From positions 138,523 through 202,522 of the forward strand of contig JAUSJO010000005.1 of the NCBI GenBank assembly GCA_030647205.1: DNA of 64,000 bases, read 5' to 3'. Under the pieces are notes generated by a model. That model was not told where the DNA came from. It ran no database searches and saw only the letters and a program-made list of their open reading frames with translations. Origin of the DNA: a bacterium. GTDB lineage: Bacteria > Patescibacteriota > CPR2 > UBA1875 > JAJYID01. Numbering within the stretch: the first letter of the stretch is position 1; each line of letters starts with the position of its first letter. Shown here in pieces: positions 2,648-63,053 of this stretch. The position numbers and the translations under genes were made by a program.

Positions 2648-3292
2648 ATGACAGATGATAAAGAAAAAAAAGTAGATAGTATCTCCGGGAAGGACGGCAA
2701 AACTTTCTATAGGTCCGTGGCAACGGGAACGATGAGTATGGATCTATCGGAGAGAGAAGCTATCGACAGAGGTTGGGGCTGGGCAGTCACTATGGGTATT
2801 GTAATGATAGTCCTTGGCGCGTTGGCTGTAGTCTATCCGATTGTAACATCAGTAGGTGTGACATTTCTTCTGGGTGTAGTCCTTGTGGTGGCAGGTGTGG
2901 CGCAGTTAGTACAGGCCTTTAGCGTTCGTGGATGGAGCGGCTTTTTCTGGCACACCTTGGTAGCTATAACTTATGCCGTCATCGGAGTGCTACTACTCAC
3001 ATATCCTCTGGGCGGACTTGTGACGCTTACATTTCTACTGGCTCTTTACCTCCTGATTTCCGGTGTTTTCAAGGTAGTAATTTCGCTCTCGTCAAGAGAA
3101 GTATCGGGTTGGGGATGGATGCTGACAAGCGGAATATTGTCGGTGATACTTGGAGTGCTAGTCTGGGCAAGCTGGCCGGTTGGGTCGCTATGGTTTATCG
3201 GCCTTTTGGTCGGTATCGATCTGGTGCTTGTAGGATTTTCGCTTTCTGCGATGGCGCTATCGGCGCATTCTCGTGAACAGGAGGAGATGTAA
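2648..3292 (+). CDS. HdeD/DUF308-like multi-pass membrane protein
   Basis: 214 aa with repeated GWGW...LGxLxxxxP transmembrane segments typical of the DUF308/HdeD family. The N-terminus is Lys-rich with GKDGKTFYR. The RBS is gaaaggaggtgag. Confidence 0.5.
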   Translation: MTDDKEKKVDSISGKDGKTFYRSVATGTMSMDLSEREAIDRGWGWAVTMGIVMIVLGALAVVYPIVTSVGVTFLLGVVLVVAGVAQLVQAFSVRGWSGFFWHTLVAITYAVIGVLLLTYPLGGLVTLTFLLALYLLISGVFKVVISLSSREVSGWGWMLTSGILSVILGVLVWASWPVGSLWFIGLLVGIDLVLVGFSLSAMALSAHSREQEEM

Positions 3293-3357
3293 AAAAAGTT
3301 AATTCGTAGTTAGCCTCGATAAAGCTCGGGGCTACCGCGGAGGGTAGAGGTGGAGAC

Positions 3358-3771
3358 ATGGAAGATAAAATTAAACGGGGAAATAACAAAAAGAAAAAGG
3401 GCGATACCTTCTATGAGGCAATACCTGCGACTGCAGTTGCGCCTCAGGAAATCCATTTGCCAAAGATTGGTGTAAAGACTGCAGATTTTCTAGAGAGTGT
3501 TGTAATATTTTTTGCCGGGACAGTAGAAGTGCTTCTTACGATAAGGGTTTTACTGATGCTTTTTGGTATAAACGGCGGGAACCTTCTGACATATCTCTTG
3601 TATGCAGCAAGCTATCCGTTTGTTCTACTCCTGAATTCTGGTCAGAGCCAAATACCGGAAATGACCAATAAGGTTTTGTATGAAAACATAGCACTTTTGT
3701 TCATTTACTTCGTAGTTTTCTACGGTCTGATAAAAGTAATCAACGCTTTTAGGGAAAGAAATAATAATTAA
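3358..3771 (+). CDS. Small membrane protein, paralog A (137 aa), unknown family
   Basis: Paralogous to 3827-4240: same length, N-terminal KKKKGDTFYE versus DGDIFYR, shared FG(I/A)NGGN and SYP(F/L)V motifs. The RBS is gaggtggagac. Confidence 0.55.
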   Translation: MEDKIKRGNNKKKKGDTFYEAIPATAVAPQEIHLPKIGVKTADFLESVVIFFAGTVEVLLTIRVLLMLFGINGGNLLTYLLYAASYPFVLLLNSGQSQIPEMTNKVLYENIALLFIYFVVFYGLIKVINAFRERNNN

Positions 3772-3826
3772 TTAAAGAAACTGCGTAAAAACGTGGTTCG
3801 CCCATGAGGGCGAGAGGTAGGGAAAA

Positions 3827-4240
3827 ATGGAAAAGGAAACAAAAAAGAAAAAGAAGAAAGAAGAAGAGGTAGATGGCGATATTTTCTATAGGGCTCATCC
3901 TATAGCTCAGCCGATAGCAAGGGTAGAACATCGTGAATCCACGCTTTCTCTTACTGTTGAGAGGGTTTTGTGGTGGGTACTTGGGATTTCTGAAGTTATC
4001 TTGCTTTTTAGAATGGTGTTTGCAGCGGTTGGTGCAAACGGTGGAAATATCATTACGTCATTCTTTTATGCAGTAAGCTATCCGCTGGTCTGGTTTTTCT
4101 TCTATCTTTTCAATACTTTGGGAAGAATACAGGTTTCGTCGCCGACATTTGAGATAGAAACGCTTGCAGCAATGGCATTCTACTACATTGTAGTCTACAT
4201 AGTTGTCGAGCTGATCAAAGGTTTTCGTAGTACAGACTAA
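3827..4240 (+). CDS. Small membrane protein, paralog B (137 aa), unknown family
   Basis: Tandem paralog of 3358-3771. The RBS is gaggtagggaaaa. Confidence 0.55.
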   Translation: MEKETKKKKKKEEEVDGDIFYRAHPIAQPIARVEHRESTLSLTVERVLWWVLGISEVILLFRMVFAAVGANGGNIITSFFYAVSYPLVWFFFYLFNTLGRIQVSSPTFEIETLAAMAFYYIVVYIVVELIKGFRSTD

Positions 4241-54944: not shown

Positions 54945-55352
54945 ATGCCAACAATAAACCAGTTAGTTAAAAACCCAAGAAAGAGTAAGATTAGAAAGAC
55001 AAAGTCACCAGCTTTGGCTAGATCTTATAATGCCCTGAAGTCAAGGAACGTGAACGCGAACTCTCCACAAAAAAGAGGGGTTTGTATCAAAGTTTCTACG
55101 ACTACACCAAAAAAGCCAAACTCAGCTCTTCGAAAGATCGCAAGAGTAAGGCTCACTAACGGTATGGAAGTCACAGCTTATATTCCGGGGATTGGTCACA
55201 ATCTTCAGGAGCATAGTGTGGTTATGATTCGTGGCGGCAGAGTAAAAGACTTACCTGGTGTCAGATATCATATTGTTCGAGGGGCGCTGGATACTGCCGG
55301 GGTTCAGAACAGAAAACAAGGCAGAAGTAAGTATGGTGCCAAGAAAAGTTAA
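54945..55352 (+). CDS. rpsL: Ribosomal protein S12 (with a roughly 13-aa N-proximal insertion)
   Basis: [10 protein letters not shown] and [10 protein letters not shown]...[14 protein letters not shown] motifs. 135 aa versus about 124 aa typically. Confidence 0.95.
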
Positions 55353-55928: not shown

Positions 55929-58016
55929 GTGCCAAGGAAATATTCACTGGAGAAAATGAGAAATATCGGGATTATCGCCCACATTGACGCAGGGAAAACC
56001 ACTGTTACTGAGGGTATTTTGTATACCACTGGCCGAACCCACAAAATCGGTGAAGTTCACGAAGGTGAAGCGACTATGGACTGGATGGAGCAGGAAAAAG
56101 AACGTGGTATTACTATTACCTCTGCTGCCACAACTTGTTTCTGGAGAGATCATAACATAAACATTATTGATACTCCGGGCCATGTAGACTTTACGGTTGA
56201 GGTTGAGAGATCTCTGCGTGTTCTAGACGGCGCGGTTGTTATTTTTGATGGAAAAATGGGTGTAGAACCTCAGAGTGAAACTGTTTGGAGGCAAGCCGAT
56301 AAATACAACGTTCCGAGAATTTGCTTCATTAACAAGATCAATCAAACTGGTGGTGATTTCTATAAAAGTCTTGATTCTATTAAAGAGAGATTAAACAGAA
56401 ACGCTTATCCGGTTCAGCTCCCAATCGGTTTTGAACAGGCGATAAACGGTATCATCGATCTTGTAACCATGAAAGCTTACTCATACAAAGACTATACCGA
56501 CAAGACACTCACAGAGATAGAAGTGCCGGCAGACATGAAAGAGAAATGCGATAAATACAGAGAAGAGCTTCTCGAGAAAGTTGTCGAAGCAGATGATGCG
56601 CTAATGGAGAAATACCTTGGCGGAGAAGAGCTAACAGAAAAAGAGTTTATTCTAGCTATAAGAAAGAGTGTTTTGGCGGGAGGATTTTTCCCGGTATTCG
56701 GTGGAGACGGAAGAGGTGTTATCGTTCGATCTCTCCTCGATGCAGTTGTTGACTATTTGCCATCACCGCTCGAAGTTCCTCAAGCGCAAGGTGAAGATCC
56801 AAAGACCGGTGAAAAGATAGAAATTCAGTCAAACGACGAAGAGCCGTTAGCTGCTTTAGTTTTCAAAATTGCTACAGATCCATTTGTTGGTAAGCTTGCA
56901 TTTTTCCGTGTTTATAGAGGCAAACTTACAAGTGGAAGTTATGTCTATAACTCAATAACGAATTCAAAAGAAAGAATCGGCCGAATCCTAAAGATGCATG
57001 CAAACTCCCGTGAAGAAGTGAAGGAAGTTTATGCCGGCGAAATCGCTGCTGCAGTTGGCCTAAAGGGGACAACGACAGGTGATACTATTTGTGATGTTGC
57101 AAAACCGGTAATCCTTGAAAGAATTACATTCCCAGAGCCTGTTATCCAGGTTGCTATCGAGCCAAAGACAAAAGCAGACCAAGAGAAAATGGGTATCGCA
57201 TTATCCAGGCTTGGTGAGGAAGACCCAACCTTTAGGATTAAAACTAACGAAGAAACCGGTCAGACTTTGATTGAAGGTATGGGCGAGCTTCATCTTGAAA
57301 TTATCGTTGATAGGATGAAACGTGAGTTCAAGGTTGAGGCAAATGTTGGTAAGCCCCAAGTTGCATACAAAGAAACTATTAAATCAACTGCGAAGGTTGA
57401 AGGTAAATTCATCCGTCAGTCAGGTGGTAGGGGTCAGTATGGTCATGTTTGGCTTGAACTTGAACCGCTTGAGAGTGGTACAGGATTTGAGTTCGTAAAC
57501 AAGATTGTTGGTGGTTCCATTCCAAAAGAGTATATCAACCCGGTTGAAAATGGTGTGAAAGAAGCGATGACAAATGGTGTTGTCGCCGGATATCCGGTAG
57601 TTGATATGAAAGTAACTCTTTATGATGGTTCTTTCCACGAAGTTGACTCATCTGAAATGGCGTTTAAAATCGCCGGTTCTATGGCTCTTCAAGAAGGTGT
57701 TCGAAAAGCAACTCCTATTATTCTCGAACCTATTATGAAGATAGAAGTTATCACTCCGGAAGACTTTATGGGTGATGTCATGGGTGACATCAACTCCAAA
57801 CGCGGAAGAATTCAGAAAATGGAAGACAAATTCGGTTCAAAAGTCATCGATGCTCATGTACCGCTTGCCGAGATGTTCGGTTATGCTACAACTCTTCGTT
57901 CAATGTCACAGGGGAGAGCTTCATACTCAATGGAATTTGACCATTATGAAGAAGTACCTGGGAATGTTGCTGAGGAGATTAAGTCGAAAAGGGGCAAAGC
58001 AACACCAGAAAGCTAA
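55929..58016 (+). CDS. fusA: Elongation factor G
   Basis: G domain [17 protein letters not shown], and NKID. 695 aa. GTG start. Confidence 0.95.
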
Positions 58017-58123: not shown

Positions 58124-59305
58124 ATGGCAGAAAAATTTGACAGAACAAAACCGCATATCAATGTAGGTACCATCGGACACGTTGATCATGGTAAAACTAC
58201 TTTGACAGCAGCAATAACTTCAGTTCTTGCTAAAGAAGGTAAAGCAGAGGCAAGAAAGTTTGATCAGATAGACAATGCCCCAGAAGAAAGAGATCGTGGT
58301 ATTACTATCGCGACTTCTCATGTTGAGTATGAAACAGACAAAAGGCACTATGCTCACGTTGACTGTCCTGGACATGCTGACTATGTAAAGAACATGATTA
58401 CCGGTGCCGCTCAGATGGACGGAGCTATTTTGGTAGTTTCAGCTGCTGACGGACCAATGCCACAAACCAGAGAGCACATCTTGCTCGCAAGACAGGTTGG
58501 TGTTCCTTATATCGTTGTTTTCATGAACAAAACTGATCAGGTTGATGACGCTGACATGCTTGATCTTGTTGAAGAGGAAATCAGAGAACTTCTTACAAAA
58601 TATGAATTCCCTGGAAAAGACACACCTATCATCAGAGGTTCAGCACTTAAGGCGCTTGAAGGTGATGCAGACGCAGAAAAGGCAATTGGCGAACTTATGG
58701 ACGCTCTTGACTCATACATCCCTGAACCAAAAAGAGACATCGACAAACCTTTCCTAATGCCTGTTGAAGACGTTTTCTCTATCAAAGGAAGAGGAACTGT
58801 TGCAACCGGTAGAATCGAAAGAGGTTCAGTAAAAGTTGGTGACGAAATAGAAATCGTTGGTATTAAACCAACCAAGAAAACAGTTGTTACAGGTATTGAA
58901 ATGTTCAAGAAATCACTTGACTCTGGTCAAGCTGGTGACAATGCCGGTGTACTTCTTCGAGGTATTGAAAAGACTGGTATTGAAAGAGGACAAGTCTTGG
59001 CGAAACCAGGAACTATCACACCTCATACAGAGTTTGAAGCTGAAGCATACATTTTAAACAAAGAAGAGGGCGGACGACACACACCATTCTTCAAGGGATA
59101 TAAACCTCAGTTCTACATCAGAACAACTGACGTTACAGGTGAGGTAATCCTTCCTGATAAGGTAGAGATGGTTATGCCTGGTGACAAAATCGACATGAAC
59201 GTTAAACTTATCCAACCGGTTGCTTGCGAAGAAGGTTTGAGATTCGCTATCCGTGAGGGTGGACGAACAGTTGGTGCAGGAGTTGTTACAAAAATTACAA
59301 AATAA
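58124..59305 (+). CDS. tuf: Elongation factor Tu
   Basis: [18 protein letters not shown], and NKTD. 393 aa. Confidence 0.97.
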
Positions 59306-59331: not shown

Positions 59332-59652
59332 ATGGCAGAAGAAAAACCAAAGCAAAGAATACGAATCAAGCTAAAATCATACGACCACAAGCTAATCGAT
59401 CAGTCGGCAAAGCAGATTATAGAAACGGCTGAGAGAAGCGGTGCGAATGTGTGCGGGCCCATCCCGCTTCCTACAGAGCGAAAGTCAATGACGGTTATCC
59501 GTGCATCAAACATCGACAAAAACTCAAGGGAGCAGTTTGAGATGAGAACACACAAGAGATTGATTGATATTACAGAGCCGACTCCAAAGACGATTGATAC
59601 TCTTATGGAGCTTTCACTGCCATCGTGTGTGAACATCGAAATCAAAATGTAG
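59332..59652 (+). CDS. rpsJ: Ribosomal protein S10
   Basis: [25 protein letters not shown]...GPIPLPT is canonical S10. Confidence 0.95.
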
Positions 59653-59673
59653 TTAGATCCAACTTATAAAATA

Positions 59674-59705
59674 AAGAACCCACAGAAATGTGGGTTCTTT
59701 TGTGC
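59674..59705 (+). terminator. Intrinsic terminator immediately after rpsJ
   Basis: aagaacccaca gaaa tgtgggttctt ttgtg. Confidence 0.7.
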
Positions 59706-59726
59706 TTAGGAAATACAAGAAAACCA

Positions 59727-59755
59727 TTGACAAAATATATAACTTATGATAGAAT
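59727..59755 (+). promoter_or_regulatory. Consensus promoter of the inserted 59816 gene
   Basis: ttgaca, 17 nt, tagaat, then the leader hairpin ggttatc aaaag ggtaacc and RBS aggagg. Confidence 0.55.
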
Positions 59756-59815
59756 ATCACATTCGGTTATCAAAAGGGTAACCGTGTTCGTCAAAATCGA
59801 CAATAGGAGGTTGCT

Positions 59816-60508
59816 ATGAGCAACAGCACAAAAAACACAACAGATCGCCACGTGAAAACGCGTGGGTTCACTATTCCCGCAGCCGGTTTCGCCCTCGGTG
59901 ACAGGAAAACCGGGATCGTATACATAAGGAATCACTCGGGAGAGGTCATCAAGCCCAAGACCAGGATTCTGGTCCGAGTCAGCGGTCCGAGTGCGATAGA
60001 TGTGGTAGTTTTCAAGCAGGAGAGCGGCCAGAAGAAAGGCGGCTGCGTAGTCGTCAACACGGTCGAGGATCTGTGTGCGCTTATGGGTATCAAACCCACT
60101 AAGCCGAGTGCTCCGAAGAGGCAGAGCAGCAGCAGGCCGAAAAGTATCAAAACGGCCTTCATGAATCTGTCCATAGACCACCAGTCACCCAGTGGAGCTA
60201 TCATGGGTATGGCTGTGGTTGACTGCGGCGAAGCAGGAGAGACCCCGATTTACTTCGTTTCTCACACGAACGAAGAGATCAAAAAGGGAACTTCGGTTGA
60301 GGTGACCTGGCTTAGCGGCAAGACTTTTGTCGTGAAGCCGGTGGATGAGGAAGTAGACAGTGTTACCACTGATGCTTCCACGATCCCGTCACTTCTTGGT
60401 GTGAATGTCGCCAAGTATGCGACCCCCAAGACCCTTCCCGTTTCTACCGAAAGATTGGCCACGAAGTATGGCGCTCGCAGGGGCGATAAGGTCGAGGTTT
60501 CGGCGTAG
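59816..60508 (+). CDS. Hypothetical protein (230 aa), strongly GC-rich, with AbrB/SpoVT-like motifs at both ends
   Basis: GC is far above the flanking ribosomal genes. N-terminal RGFTIPAAGFALGD and C-terminal TLPVSTERLATKYGARRGDKVEV resemble swapped-hairpin DNA-binding segments. Confidence 0.55.
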   Translation: MSNSTKNTTDRHVKTRGFTIPAAGFALGDRKTGIVYIRNHSGEVIKPKTRILVRVSGPSAIDVVVFKQESGQKKGGCVVVNTVEDLCALMGIKPTKPSAPKRQSSSRPKSIKTAFMNLSIDHQSPSGAIMGMAVVDCGEAGETPIYFVSHTNEEIKKGTSVEVTWLSGKTFVVKPVDEEVDSVTTDASTIPSLLGVNVAKYATPKTLPVSTERLATKYGARRGDKVEVSA

Positions 60509-60532
60509 TTCGGGGATATCCCCCAAGAAGAG

Positions 60533-60563
60533 GGCCGGCGCAAATGCGCGCTGGCCCTTTTTT
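60533..60563 (+). terminator. Intrinsic terminator
   Basis: gggccggcgc aaat gcgcgctggccc tttttt. Confidence 0.75.
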
Positions 60564-60657
60564 CTATGGTAATTTTTTAATAATAAATTGATTGACATGG
60601 TATTTTTTATGCTATACATTGAGGGAAACAAAAACATAAGCGTAAAAAGGAGTAAAA

Positions 60658-61137
60658 ATGAAAAAAGAAAATATATTTGGAATTTTAAGGATAGTAATGG
60701 GGTGGATATTCTTGTGGCCGTTTTTGGATAAACTTTTCGGTCTGGGATATTCTACGAAATCCGGAAAAGCATGGCTTGATGGTGTTTCGCCAACGGCAGG
60801 CTTTCTAAAAAGCGCTCAAGGACCATTTGGAAATTTCTTCCATAGTTTGGCGGGAAATACGGCAGTTGACTGGCTTTTTATGCTCGGTCTGCTTCTAGTC
60901 GGTTCTGCACTAATTCTTGGAATCGGAGTAAGGATTGCGGCATATTCAGGATCAGTAATGGTGATCTTAATGTGGCTAGCTTCAATGCCGATAAAAACGA
61001 ACCCTATTATAGACGATCATATAGTTTATCTTCTAGTTTTCTTAATGCTTGCAAGTGTTGGTGCCGGCCAATATCTTGGTCTTGGCAACTGGTGGAAGAA
61101 ACAAAAGATAGTAAAAAAGAACTCAATCTTAGAATAA
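60658..61137 (+). CDS. DoxX-family membrane protein
   Basis: Four predicted TM helices. N-terminus ...GILRIVMGWIFLWPFLDKL is typical of DoxX. RBS aaaaggag. Confidence 0.5.
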   Translation: MKKENIFGILRIVMGWIFLWPFLDKLFGLGYSTKSGKAWLDGVSPTAGFLKSAQGPFGNFFHSLAGNTAVDWLFMLGLLLVGSALILGIGVRIAAYSGSVMVILMWLASMPIKTNPIIDDHIVYLLVFLMLASVGAGQYLGLGNWWKKQKIVKKNSILE

Positions 61138-61271
61138 AAAATTATTTGACCGGTAATCTTGGTTGTGTTAGATTGAGATTACAAACAATTTGACAAGGGG
61201 GAGGGGTGATCCTTCCTTTTTGTGTGTACTTTTTACAAATTTCCCAATTTTCTTAGAGAAAGGCGGACAAA

Positions 61272-61628
61272 ATGGAGAATCAAGCAGAAGCCGTAGATGT
61301 GGCTGGTAAGGTAGAGATATCCGAATTCTACTGTCCTAGCTGTGGCGCTGATCTGGCAAAATCAATAAGGTTTGCTTATATAGTTGAGGAGGCCGGATCT
61401 ATCATTATGGTTGATGGACAACCTAGGGTTGTGCCCAAAAAGTTCCCATTTCAAAACCAGACAGGAAATCACATTGTTCATCGAGTAAACTGTGCTCGCT
61501 GCGGCCACTCTGTTTCTGACTTAATAAGAAACAGAAAATTCTACATATCCAGTGTTGAAGAGCCGCCTCTCGATGATGAATCTGACCAGGAATCGTCGTT
61601 CGATTTTTTGACAAAAAATAAGCACTGA
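61272..61628 (+). CDS. Zinc-ribbon hypothetical protein, GC-rich
   Basis: CPSCGADL...CARCGHS tetracysteine ribbon. Terminator at 61643-61680. Confidence 0.5.
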   Translation: MENQAEAVDVAGKVEISEFYCPSCGADLAKSIRFAYIVEEAGSIIMVDGQPRVVPKKFPFQNQTGNHIVHRVNCARCGHSVSDLIRNRKFYISSVEEPPLDDESDQESSFDFLTKNKH

Positions 61629-61642
61629 TCTTTCCTAGTAAT

Positions 61643-61680
61643 GCCCCGGGACTAACGTTGTCCCGGGGCACAACATTTTA
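61643..61680 (+). terminator. Hairpin terminator
   Basis: gccccgggac taacgtt gtcccggggc followed by an A/T-rich stretch. Confidence 0.6.
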
Positions 61681-61693
61681 GCTTAAAAATTTG

Positions 61694-61722
61694 TTGACTT
61701 TAGCTCACATTTAGCTTATAAT
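61694..61722 (+). promoter_or_regulatory. Consensus promoter that re-initiates the rplC-rplD-rplW-rplB operon
   Basis: ttgact, 17 nt, tataat. Confidence 0.6.
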
Positions 61723-61832
61723 CTTTTAAGTTATTTAAATATAACGGAATAATAACTAAAATCAACGGGGTACAGGTAAGTCCTTAAGGAAACTATTTGT
61801 ATGTCGGAAAAGTTTTTTTTGCGCCAAAAAAT

Positions 61833-62432
61833 ATGAAAGCAATATTAGCCAAAAAAATAGGTATGACCAACTATTTCAACGATAAGGGTGAGATGGTTCC
61901 TGTTACATTGGTTGAGGCCGGTCCATGCGTAATTACACAGATTAAAACCAAAGAAAAAGACGGTTATGAGGCAGTCCAGATTGGATTTGGCGAAAAAAAG
62001 AAGCTTGGTAAAGCTCTAGCGGGACATCTCGGTAAAGCAAAATCAAGGCACCTAAAAGAAGTAGAAATGGATGTAACGGACGTAAAAGTTGGTGGCACCA
62101 TAACATGTGAAGTTTTTGCAGAAGGCGAAAAGGTACATGTTACAGGTCTCAGCAAAGGTAAAGGTTTCGCCGGGACAATAAAAAGGCATAATTTCCATCG
62201 TGGTCCCATGACTCATGGTTCTCGCAACCACAGAGCGCCTGGTTCTATCGGAGCGATGTATCCTCAGCATGTTTTCAAAGGAAGAAAGCTTCCGGGACAG
62301 ATGGGTCATGCTCAAGTTACGGTAAAAAATCTGAAGATTGAAAAAGTTGATGCCGGTAAAAACATTTTAGCGGTTAAGGGTGCTATACCGGGACCTAGAA
62401 AATCATTAATTCTAATTAAAAGCGTAGGATAA
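61833..62432 (+). CDS. rplC: Ribosomal protein L3
   Basis: MKAILAKKIGMTNYF start and a conserved L3 core. The track start at 61797 is an in-frame upstream ATG with no support. Confidence 0.93.
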   Translation: MKAILAKKIGMTNYFNDKGEMVPVTLVEAGPCVITQIKTKEKDGYEAVQIGFGEKKKLGKALAGHLGKAKSRHLKEVEMDVTDVKVGGTITCEVFAEGEKVHVTGLSKGKGFAGTIKRHNFHRGPMTHGSRNHRAPGSIGAMYPQHVFKGRKLPGQMGHAQVTVKNLKIEKVDAGKNILAVKGAIPGPRKSLILIKSVG

Positions 62433-62435
62433 AAG

Positions 62436-63053
62436 ATGAAAGTAGCAGTTTACGACAAAGCGGGTAAAAAAGCGGAGACTTCAGTTACGACGAAGCTTTT
62501 TGACGGAAAGGCAAACGAAGCATTGCTTGCTGAAGCTATTTATATTTTATCTTCAAATAAACGGCAAGCACCGGCAAGTACGCTTGATAGATCAGAAGTT
62601 TCGGGTGGGGGCAAAAAGCCATGGAGACAAAAAGGTACAGGACGAGCAAGAGCCGGATCTTCAAGATCACCAATCTGGAGAAGTGGTGGCGTGACATTTG
62701 GTCCAAGACAGGAGCAGAACTTCAAGCTTGATATGCCAAAGAAGAAGAGACAAGCAGCTCTTAAGGCTGCGCTTACAACCAAAAAGGAAGAAGATGTCAT
62801 TGTTTTAAAAGATTTAAAACTCGAAAAACCAAGTACAAAGTTGTTTGCAGGTCTTTTTAAAAAACTGGATTTAAACAGAAACGTGTTGGTTGTGACAGAA
62901 AAGCCGGATGTAAATGTTTATAAAAGCGTAAGAAACTTAAGCTGTGGTGTGAAAATATACAGCTACAAAGAAATGAATGCATATGATGTTCTTTGGGCAA
63001 AGAAGCTTGTATTTTTAGGTGACAGCTTGAAGCTGGCCGGAGGAGATAAATAA
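62436..63053 (+). CDS. rplD: Ribosomal protein L4
   Basis: GGGKKPWRQKGTGRAR and an L4 core. Confidence 0.93.
   Translation: MKVAVYDKAGKKAETSVTTKLFDGKANEALLAEAIYILSSNKRQAPASTLDRSEVSGGGKKPWRQKGTGRARAGSSRSPIWRSGGVTFGPRQEQNFKLDMPKKKRQAALKAALTTKKEEDVIVLKDLKLEKPSTKLFAGLFKKLDLNRNVLVVTEKPDVNVYKSVRNLSCGVKIYSYKEMNAYDVLWAKKLVFLGDSLKLAGGDK

Follow-up and report, generated by a model that had tools for sequence, protein, structure and literature searches.

The rpsJ–rplC interval of a Patescibacteria genome: a probable lineage-typical operon split with a candidate rplC leader

Does a three-gene block between the ribosomal protein genes rpsJ (S10) and rplC (L3) mark a recent arrival of foreign DNA, or is it the ordinary arrangement of a lineage? 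The question is raised by a stretch of 64,000 nucleotides (nt) from a Patescibacteria genome (positions 138,523 to 202,522 of contig JAUSJO010000005.1, assembly GCA_030647205.1), hereafter the window. A sequence-only reading of the window had proposed a GC-rich insertion and an unusual re-wiring of the S10 operon. We compared the locus with those of its relatives, and the results indicate that the layout is probably an operon arrangement typical of one small clade within the Patescibacteria (candidate phyla radiation, CPR) and not a recent insertion.

The block occupies the exact interval from the rpsJ stop codon to the rplC ATG (59653–61832; 2.2 kb). It consists of three open reading frames (ORFs): ORF1 (59816–60508; 230 amino acids), ORF2 (60658–61137; 159 amino acids) and ORF3 (61272–61628; 118 amino acids). 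They are flanked by rpsJ (59332–59652; Pfam Ribosomal_S10, 3.2e-36) and rplC (61833–62432; Pfam Ribosomal_L3, 3e-16). According to the ORF list of the window, the gene order is fusA, tuf, rpsJ, ORF1, ORF2, ORF3, rplC, rplD (62436–63053) and rplW; the genes from tuf to rplC, and the promoter-like sites, hairpins and leader described for this interval, lie on the + strand. The ORF list and the two Pfam matches bear out the earlier statement that three genes break the S10 string here. The rearrangement is a lineage-typical variant of an already known kind. In the explanation that we favor, rpsJ has been shifted so that it closes the str/tuf transcription unit, with a terminator-like hairpin behind it, and the rest of the former S10 operon, from rplC-rplD-rplW to secY, has a conserved sigma-70-type promoter of its own, predicted from sequence, and a structured 110-nt leader. 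The interval is an old accessory-gene slot in which DoxX (ORF2) is constant, ORF1 and ORF3 are fast-evolving orphans, and other genes come and go.

The rpsJ–rplC interval in related genomes

Synteny was examined by scanning for L3 in one genome per GTDB species, which yielded 80 loci (designated L), and nine window proteins were mapped on them. Both rpsJ and rplC were present at 74 loci. The two genes were separated by 15–324 nt in 67 of the 74, which include Firmicutes, other phyla and many Patescibacteria, and by 853–3861 nt in the other seven (L002, L003, L005, L007, L008, L010 and L065). All seven wide-gap loci belong to metagenome-assembled genomes (MAGs) labelled Patescibacteria, Saccharibacteria or unclassified 'bacterium'. 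Every closest relative with both genes on one contig is split (L002, L003 and L005), so that the split, described as unusual in the sequence-only reading, is the rule among close relatives.

In the near clade, defined by an L3 identity of 68–94%, a DoxX gene was always found in the slot (L002–L006, L081 and L086; 65–82% amino-acid identity). ORF1 was found there in L081, L086, L005 and L006/L091, with homologues 41–47% identical in L005 and L006/L091. In L005 the homologue comes immediately behind rpsJ; in L006/L091 it immediately precedes DoxX, and the contig there ends in a transposase fragment, so that rpsJ is outside the view. ORF3 was in the slot in L081, L086 and L006/L091 (37–39%), and weak relatives occupied the same position in L002 and L005. 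L005 and L006/L091 carry the same genes in the same order, with an L3 only 68–70% identical to that of the window. L081 has an identical five-gene order at about 93% nucleotide identity, and the proteins of L086 are 100% identical to those of the window. The synteny comparison thus contradicts a recent insertion, since the same genes, order and composition anomaly (see below) recur in relatives, which is essentially what the sequence-only reading had named as the finding that would overturn it.

Other occupants of the slot among the relatives were genes for TrpR-like, NUDIX, class IV aminotransferase, PGA_cap and PHP proteins and for a conserved 178-amino-acid protein. In L091, a DDE (rve-type) transposase fragment (2–544; ...YNTYRPHQSLGMKTPLEYL) lies at the contig end immediately upstream of the ORF1 homologue. 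The position of this fragment of insertion sequence (IS) type indicates that IS elements also use the slot.

Predicted transcription units and the rplC leader

On the upstream side, fusA (55929–58016) and tuf (EF-Tu; 58124–59305), both taken from the ORF list, precede rpsJ, and the spacing between tuf and rpsJ is 26 nt. A promoter and terminator scan found neither a terminator nor a convincing promoter in this spacer, and tblastn synteny revealed tuf-rpsJ adjacency in all relatives. By these sequence features, rpsJ is predicted to be the last gene of the str/tuf unit here, not the first gene of the S10 operon. Its product is 100% identical in amino acids between the window and L081.

rpsJ is followed by an intrinsic-terminator-like hairpin at 59673–59705, with a 12-base-pair (bp) stem, a 4-nt loop and a T-rich tail. 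The stem is a perfect inverted repeat (59673–59684/59689–59700; minimum free energy [MFE] −20 kcal/mol), in which L081 shows one compensatory change, from A-T to G-C. Because a hairpin with a T run also follows rpsJ in 7/7 split relatives, namely the seven wide-gap loci, the terminator assigned to rpsJ in the sequence-only reading holds as a prediction.

The rplC operon has a putative promoter at 61694–61722, TTGACT(TT), 17 nt, TATAAT. It had been called a perfect consensus; the site is there, at a match of 11/12. The −35 element (TTGACTTT) and the −10 element (TATAAT) were invariant in the window, L081, L001, L002, L003, L005 and L006, and the 17-nt spacer between them was fixed in length and variable in sequence. 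By sigma-70-type criteria the site is a predicted promoter, and with invariant boxes and variable spacers in six relatives and the window, the proposed re-wiring of rplC is upheld. rplC would be the first gene of the L3-L4-L23... operon, running on to secY. In L081, the L3-to-SecY cluster downstream of rplC is uninterrupted and contains no L30 gene, as is characteristic of CPR genomes. We infer that transcription stops after rpsJ and restarts at about 61723–61729.

The predicted rplC leader (61723–61832) is 110 nt long and contains a 15-bp hairpin at 61766–61806. Downstream of the hairpin are GAAAAG, a U8 run (61813–61820), GCGCC and an A-rich run that leads to the ATG, with no Shine-Dalgarno sequence. 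Since the U8 run is 6 nt away from the hairpin, the leader is not a canonical attenuator terminator. In the relatives its length ranged over 107–127 nt (107, 109, 110, 114 and 127). An N-terminal extension of L3 from a TTG at 61797 was considered and rejected, because these lengths differ by non-multiples of 3 and the frame is not kept; the start of rplC is therefore the ATG at 61833.

The leader hairpin, an interrupted 15-bp helix, had 98.3% of its cells paired, compared with 22–48% when the partners were slid. Four pairs were changed on both sides, and the covariation score was reached by 0/500 shuffles in an alignment of 8 sequences of common ancestry with an effective number of 1.75. L004 (2366–2612) carries an insertion of ~170 nt in the apical loop, with the basal helix kept; this insertion is self-complementary (MFE −85.6 kcal/mol, z −8.1) and is possibly a small palindromic mobile element. 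The covariance model of the leader (R1) matched upstream of rplC in the near clade only, and gave no match in L007–L010 or in contiguous-operon genomes. In Rfam, nothing reached the gathering threshold for the window and 7 relatives, and the E-value mode returned terminator-like noise only. A pattern scan of metagenomes returned 4 loci: a duplicate of L002, two that were mutually identical, and one chance match. Separately, in L082 (about 150–250; reverse-complement duplicate L084), GC-rich sequence stands in place of the promoter-proximal stretch of the rplC leader; among its elements are CGGGAATGAC repeat units and a CCCGCTTTCGCGGG palindrome.

The rplC promoter and leader are kept clade-wide, including in members without ORF1 and ORF3. 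As a conserved, covarying structure in the 5′ untranslated region (5′UTR), the leader is a candidate ribosomal-protein leader. On the model of the E. coli L4-S10 leader and the L4 leader candidate of Archaeoglobi, the hairpin may be the autogenous-control target of a product of the L3 operon, L4 being the likeliest. In one of the two bolder readings given below, it would have evolved after the S10 split as a new feedback sensor for the orphaned L3-L4 operon, with L4 or L3 as its ligand.

Sequences upstream of the start codons in this region were of two kinds. A/U-rich sequence without a Shine-Dalgarno site precedes rpsJ (59332), rplC (61833) and an ORF starting at 54945, the last of which was judged to be rpsL from its position and sequence, no search having identified it. 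AGGAGG-type sites precede tuf (58124), ORF1 (59816) and ORF2 (60658).

ORF1 and the other genes of the interval

ORF1 has the highest GC content of the about 55 ORFs in the window (0.537; 0.51/0.46/0.64 at the first, second and third codon positions, GC1/GC2/GC3). The window has a GC content of 0.416 and a GC3 of about 0.33, and the neighbours of ORF1 have a GC3 of 0.31–0.39, except rpsJ (0.50) and rplW (0.43). The description of the block as GC-rich is correct for ORF1 alone; the GC contents of ORF2 and ORF3 are 0.40 and 0.43. The ORF1 homologue of L005 (6767–7372) has a GC content of 0.54 against 0.41 for its genome, with a GC3 of 0.66, and that of L006 (209–844) has 0.50 against 0.39, with a GC3 of 0.54; over the three lineages, the ORF1 GC3 of 0.54–0.66 stands in genomes whose own GC3 is around 0.35. 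A comparison of the window with L005 gave saturated synonymous sites for every gene (proportion of synonymous differences, pS, 0.69–0.74). Because a foreign composition would decay over such a divergence, the GC bias of ORF1 must be maintained, not imported, and an atypical composition kept in distant homologues should not be taken as diagnostic of transfer.

The coding sequence of ORF1 also folded more stably than dinucleotide shuffles in three lineages (z −3.2, −3.3 and −3.4). For comparison, z was −0.5 to +1.5 for DoxX and tuf and −1.8 for rplC. No consensus structure common to the ORF1 lineages was found (alifold z −0.44 versus column shuffles). The comparison of homologous sequences shows that high GC, chiefly GC3, has been maintained in ORF1, together with unusually stable mRNA folding.

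Substitutions between the window and L081 show that ORF1 evolves as a protein-coding gene. The ratio of nonsynonymous to synonymous rates (dN/dS) was 0.13, with 10/5/35 differences by codon position, and the annotated frame alone combines zero stops with a low ratio. The hypothesis of a disguised structured RNA was rejected given these values in the + frame and the missing consensus structure. An antisense gene was rejected as well, since the long antisense ORFs contain stops and do not occupy a common frame between the window and L005/L006. The synonymous rate (dS) of ORF1, 0.24, is in line with the 0.24–0.32 of rpsJ, rplC, rplD and rplW (rpsJ 0.24; rplC 0.25). In its codon usage, ORF1 runs opposite to the ribosomal genes.

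In the public annotation, ORF1 is Q7S53_04080 (P0002), a protein of 141 amino acids that omits the first 89 codons (59816–60082). Both parts of the reading frame are constrained (dN/dS 0.18 in the N-terminal 89 codons and 0.11 in the rest), and the start has a strong AGGAGG Shine-Dalgarno sequence. The NCBI call is thus truncated, because of the N-terminal dN/dS of 0.18, the conservation of this part and the kept AGGAGG-ATG start.

HMMER, run exhaustively over 1.84 billion representatives, recovered just 2 clusters of the ORF1 family, which by these matches is confined to the near clade. There was no match to ORF1 in Pfam, NCBIfam, PHROG, PADLOC or PDB-profile searches, and no relatives were found in viral contigs. 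The AbrB-like motifs attributed to ORF1 by the sequence-only reading find no HMM support: 4 family members gave no Pfam hit to SpoVT_AbrB or MazE at E-values up to 10, and the NCBIfam and PDB-profile searches gave none either. An AlphaFold2 model from a 3-sequence alignment was unusable, with a predicted local distance difference test (pLDDT) score of 32.

The putative promoter of ORF1 is at 59727–59755 (TTGACA, 17 nt, TG-n-TAGAAT; 11/12, extended −10), and its −35 box and TATG..TA −10 region are kept in L081, L005 and L006. Just downstream, at 59764–59784, lies a 5′UTR palindrome (CGGTTA, loop TCAAAAGGG, TAACCG). In the alignment, L005 and L006 show a swap of a T-A for a C-G pair and keep the loop CAAAAGG. 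The palindrome could be an RNA hairpin or a DNA operator, two forms that are indistinguishable here. A terminator-like hairpin follows ORF1 at 60532–60563 (GGGCCGGCGC...GCGCGCTGGCCC, then T6). It forms the terminal helix of the MFE fold and is identical in L081, and it was not listed by the terminator scan.

ORF2 has a promoter-like site at 60592–60620 (TTGACA, 17 nt, TACATT; 10/12), which is identical in L081; the DoxX gene of L002 is preceded by TTGACA...TATAAA. In the spacer between ORF2 and ORF3, the scan placed a terminator-like hairpin with a T run at 61193–61233, the G-rich hairpin itself spanning 61193–61223. The spacer as a whole (61138–61271) is 95.5% identical to that of L081, exceeding synonymous-site conservation. 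The sole promoter candidate for ORF3, at 61146–61174, sits upstream of this hairpin, which makes an independent ORF3 promoter doubtful; the two together are possibly an attenuator-type ORF3 leader. A further hairpin follows ORF3 at 61643–61679 (GCCCCGGGAC...GTCCCGGGGC, with a weak T tail). It was not flagged by the scan and is kept in L081; its GC-hairpin counterpart in L002 has a better T run. The sequence-only reading had given all three genes promoters and terminators of their own. For ORF1 and ORF2 this agrees with our prediction, in which each has its own promoter-like site, a strong Shine-Dalgarno sequence and a terminator hairpin; for ORF3 the promoter part falls away.

The reading of ORF2 as DoxX-like is supported. 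The match to Pfam DoxX (PF07681) scored 22.7 bits against a cut-off of 23.6, 0.9 bit short, over 78/85 model positions. A protein identical to ORF2 is named 'DoxX family protein' by NCBI. More than 2500 relatives occur across CPR and DPANN, many with PF07681, including those at 59–85% identity. Kyte-Doolittle analysis indicated ~4 hydrophobic segments (about 5–24, 68–88, 89–107 and 118–140). These results support ORF2 as a DoxX-family small multi-pass membrane protein. Its dS against L081 (1424–1903) was 0.73, threefold that of the flanks, with six neighbour genes at 0.18–0.32 and flanking intergenic sequence ~95% identical; its dN/dS was 0.10. It looks as if ORF2 alone was replaced by a more divergent allele through recombination. 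DoxX was also considered as a marker of the slot beyond the clade and rejected, since the CPR homologues of about 60% identity do not neighbour ribosomal genes. As a separate observation, close DoxX homologues (P0036, P0051 and P0121; 58–62%) occur in DPANN and other archaeal MAGs, labelled Aenigmarchaeota, 'archaeon' and Nitrosocosmicus, and in many CPR phyla too, which suggests that this small membrane protein is shared between domains.

ORF3 had been described as a zinc-ribbon protein. The two CxxC pairs are present (C21/C24 and C74/C77); the homologue in L006 retains both of them and that in L002 the second. All hits to Zn-ribbon hidden Markov models (HMMs) were below their cut-offs. ORF3 may thus be called Zn-ribbon-like at the level of two CxxC pairs only, and it is otherwise an apparent orphan; a word-index search found no relatives beyond the near-clade ones given above. 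Its dN/dS and dS against L081 were both 0.18, and the dN/dS of rplC was 0.06. The substitution ratios indicate that ORF1, ORF2 and ORF3 are all under purifying selection.

Elsewhere in the window, at 2648–4240, the N-termini of three consecutive small ORFs (214, 137 and 137 amino acids) are Lys-rich and resemble one another, with a G(D/K)xFY(R/E)(A/S) motif behind them; the ORFs are possibly a paralogous family. The first of them is moderately GC-rich (0.49).

Weighing the explanations and comparison with known systems

Several points weigh against a lineage-typical architecture of the kind described. Neither ORF1 nor ORF3 occurs in L002 and L003/L004, whose L3 is nearer to that of the window than is the L3 of L005 and L006, and so the history of the two genes needs at least two losses or a transfer within the clade. 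The gap genes of the distant loci L007, L008, L010 and L065 have none in common with the window, and some Saccharibacteria-labelled MAGs are contiguous (L031, 71 nt; L079, 123 nt); because of these two observations, the rpsJ/rplC split may have arisen more than once. The window leader alone folds no better than shuffles (z −1.2), and the effective number behind the covariation is small. The terminators and promoters are sequence predictions, and promoter hits within one sequence occurred at chance frequency (17 found versus 15.5 expected); what makes the predicted promoters credible is their conservation across species, not single-sequence matches.

A functional linkage would give the block another meaning, and we consider it unlikely. 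ORF1 and/or ORF3 would be co-expressed, lineage-specific translation or ribosome-associated factors, and the folded, GC3-rich ORF1 mRNA would tune expression. The genes do persist at the site under purifying selection, but L002, L003 and L004 do without ORF1 and ORF3, and the slot of relatives holds unrelated metabolic genes. A strong promoter-like site, the AGGAGG sequence, the conserved 5′UTR hairpin and the maintained GC3 and folding stability of ORF1 would all suit such a role, whereas the codon usage of ORF1 points the other way and no usable structure prediction was obtained. Small proteins with a Zn ribbon occur commonly among those of the ribosome; ORF3, however, matched the S27 and L37e models far below threshold and shares the CxxC motif only.

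A recent horizontal insertion, in which a foreign GC-rich cassette between rpsJ and rplC forced a new rplC promoter, is very unlikely. Within the window, ORF1 stands out in both GC and GC3, but it is one gene of three, its dS equals that of its flanks, and the same order and anomaly are found at 68–70% L3 identity, where synonymous sites are saturated. The orphan status of ORF1 and ORF3, and their lack in L002 and L003, would fit an arrival from outside; yet the rplC promoter and leader are clade-wide, also where the two genes are missing, and the 1.84e9 representatives and the viral contigs held no ORF1 homologue outside the clade. The IS-type transposase fragment adjoining the ORF1 homologue in L091 and the threefold dS of DoxX, which suggests recombination at the site, also speak for it, whereas the window has no integrase, tRNA or direct repeats, its repeats being only short and at chance level, and no PHROG or PADLOC (phage or defence) families. 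An assembly or binning artefact is extremely improbable: the window comes from a MAG, but the arrangement is not that of a chimeric contig, because the independent assemblies L081, L086 (both from Logan; L086 with the identical proteins) and L002/L085 carry it, and five further species-level relatives have the same layout. Sequence of this species or of a near relative has been assembled from the runs SRR13727527 and SRR22388055.

Lineage-typical architecture is thus the preferred explanation, and it corrects the notion that genes of high GC content within a ribosomal operon point to recent foreign DNA. Two bolder readings, to which we give rather less than even chances, go further: the rplC leader would be a new clade-specific autoregulatory RNA, and the ORF1 transcript would have an RNA-level role or an unusual need for expression control. 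ORF1 may have such a second role because its GC-rich synonymous sites and folded mRNA have been held over a saturating divergence. The new elements are the candidate clade-specific rplC leader and the orphan ORF1 with its maintained GC3 and folding anomaly. With its new promoter and covarying leader, the locus is a candidate case of feedback control rebuilt after an operon break. These results are of use mainly for CPR genome annotation and for catalogues of ribosomal leaders, and change no major concept.

As for the DoxX family among known systems, ORF2 has no partner gene such as DoxA, and outside the clade its relatives are not beside ribosomal genes. The leader of the E. coli S10 operon acts by L4-mediated attenuation and translational repression (PMC3616713), and a candidate L4 leader has been described upstream of rplC in Archaeoglobi (PMC7247131). 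Both are, like the leader here, structured 5′ leaders before an operon that encodes L4, and the one of Archaeoglobi is also directly upstream of rplC. The leader here differs from these and from Rfam leaders in matching no family and in being restricted to one small clade.

Gammaproteobacteria and Bacilli have vertically inherited multigene insertions into the translation-gene cluster (PMC8046335). As here, these consist of few unrelated genes, are vertical within a clade and undergo further turnover. They lie between operons, whereas the break described here falls within the canonical S10 operon, behind the first gene, and comes with a new promoter and leader.

The str operon of cyanobacteria and plastids ends in tufA-rps10. 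A close likeness to the present layout is the archaeal str/L30e cluster (S12-S7-EF-2-EF-1alpha-S10), with uL3-uL4-uL23 separate: S10 ends the EF-Tu/EF-1alpha unit, and L3-L4-L23 starts independently. In archaea, S10 follows EF-1alpha and is always apart from L3-L4-L23 (PMC10833476), which also speaks against regarding such a split as unusual. Unlike the archaeal layout, the two units here are on the same strand, 2.2 kb apart, in a bacterium of the CPR, with lineage-specific genes in the gap, and common descent of the two layouts is not implied. In bacteria the junction of rpsJ and rplC passes for nearly invariant, yet a part of the CPR routinely has it open and there converges on the archaeal layout.

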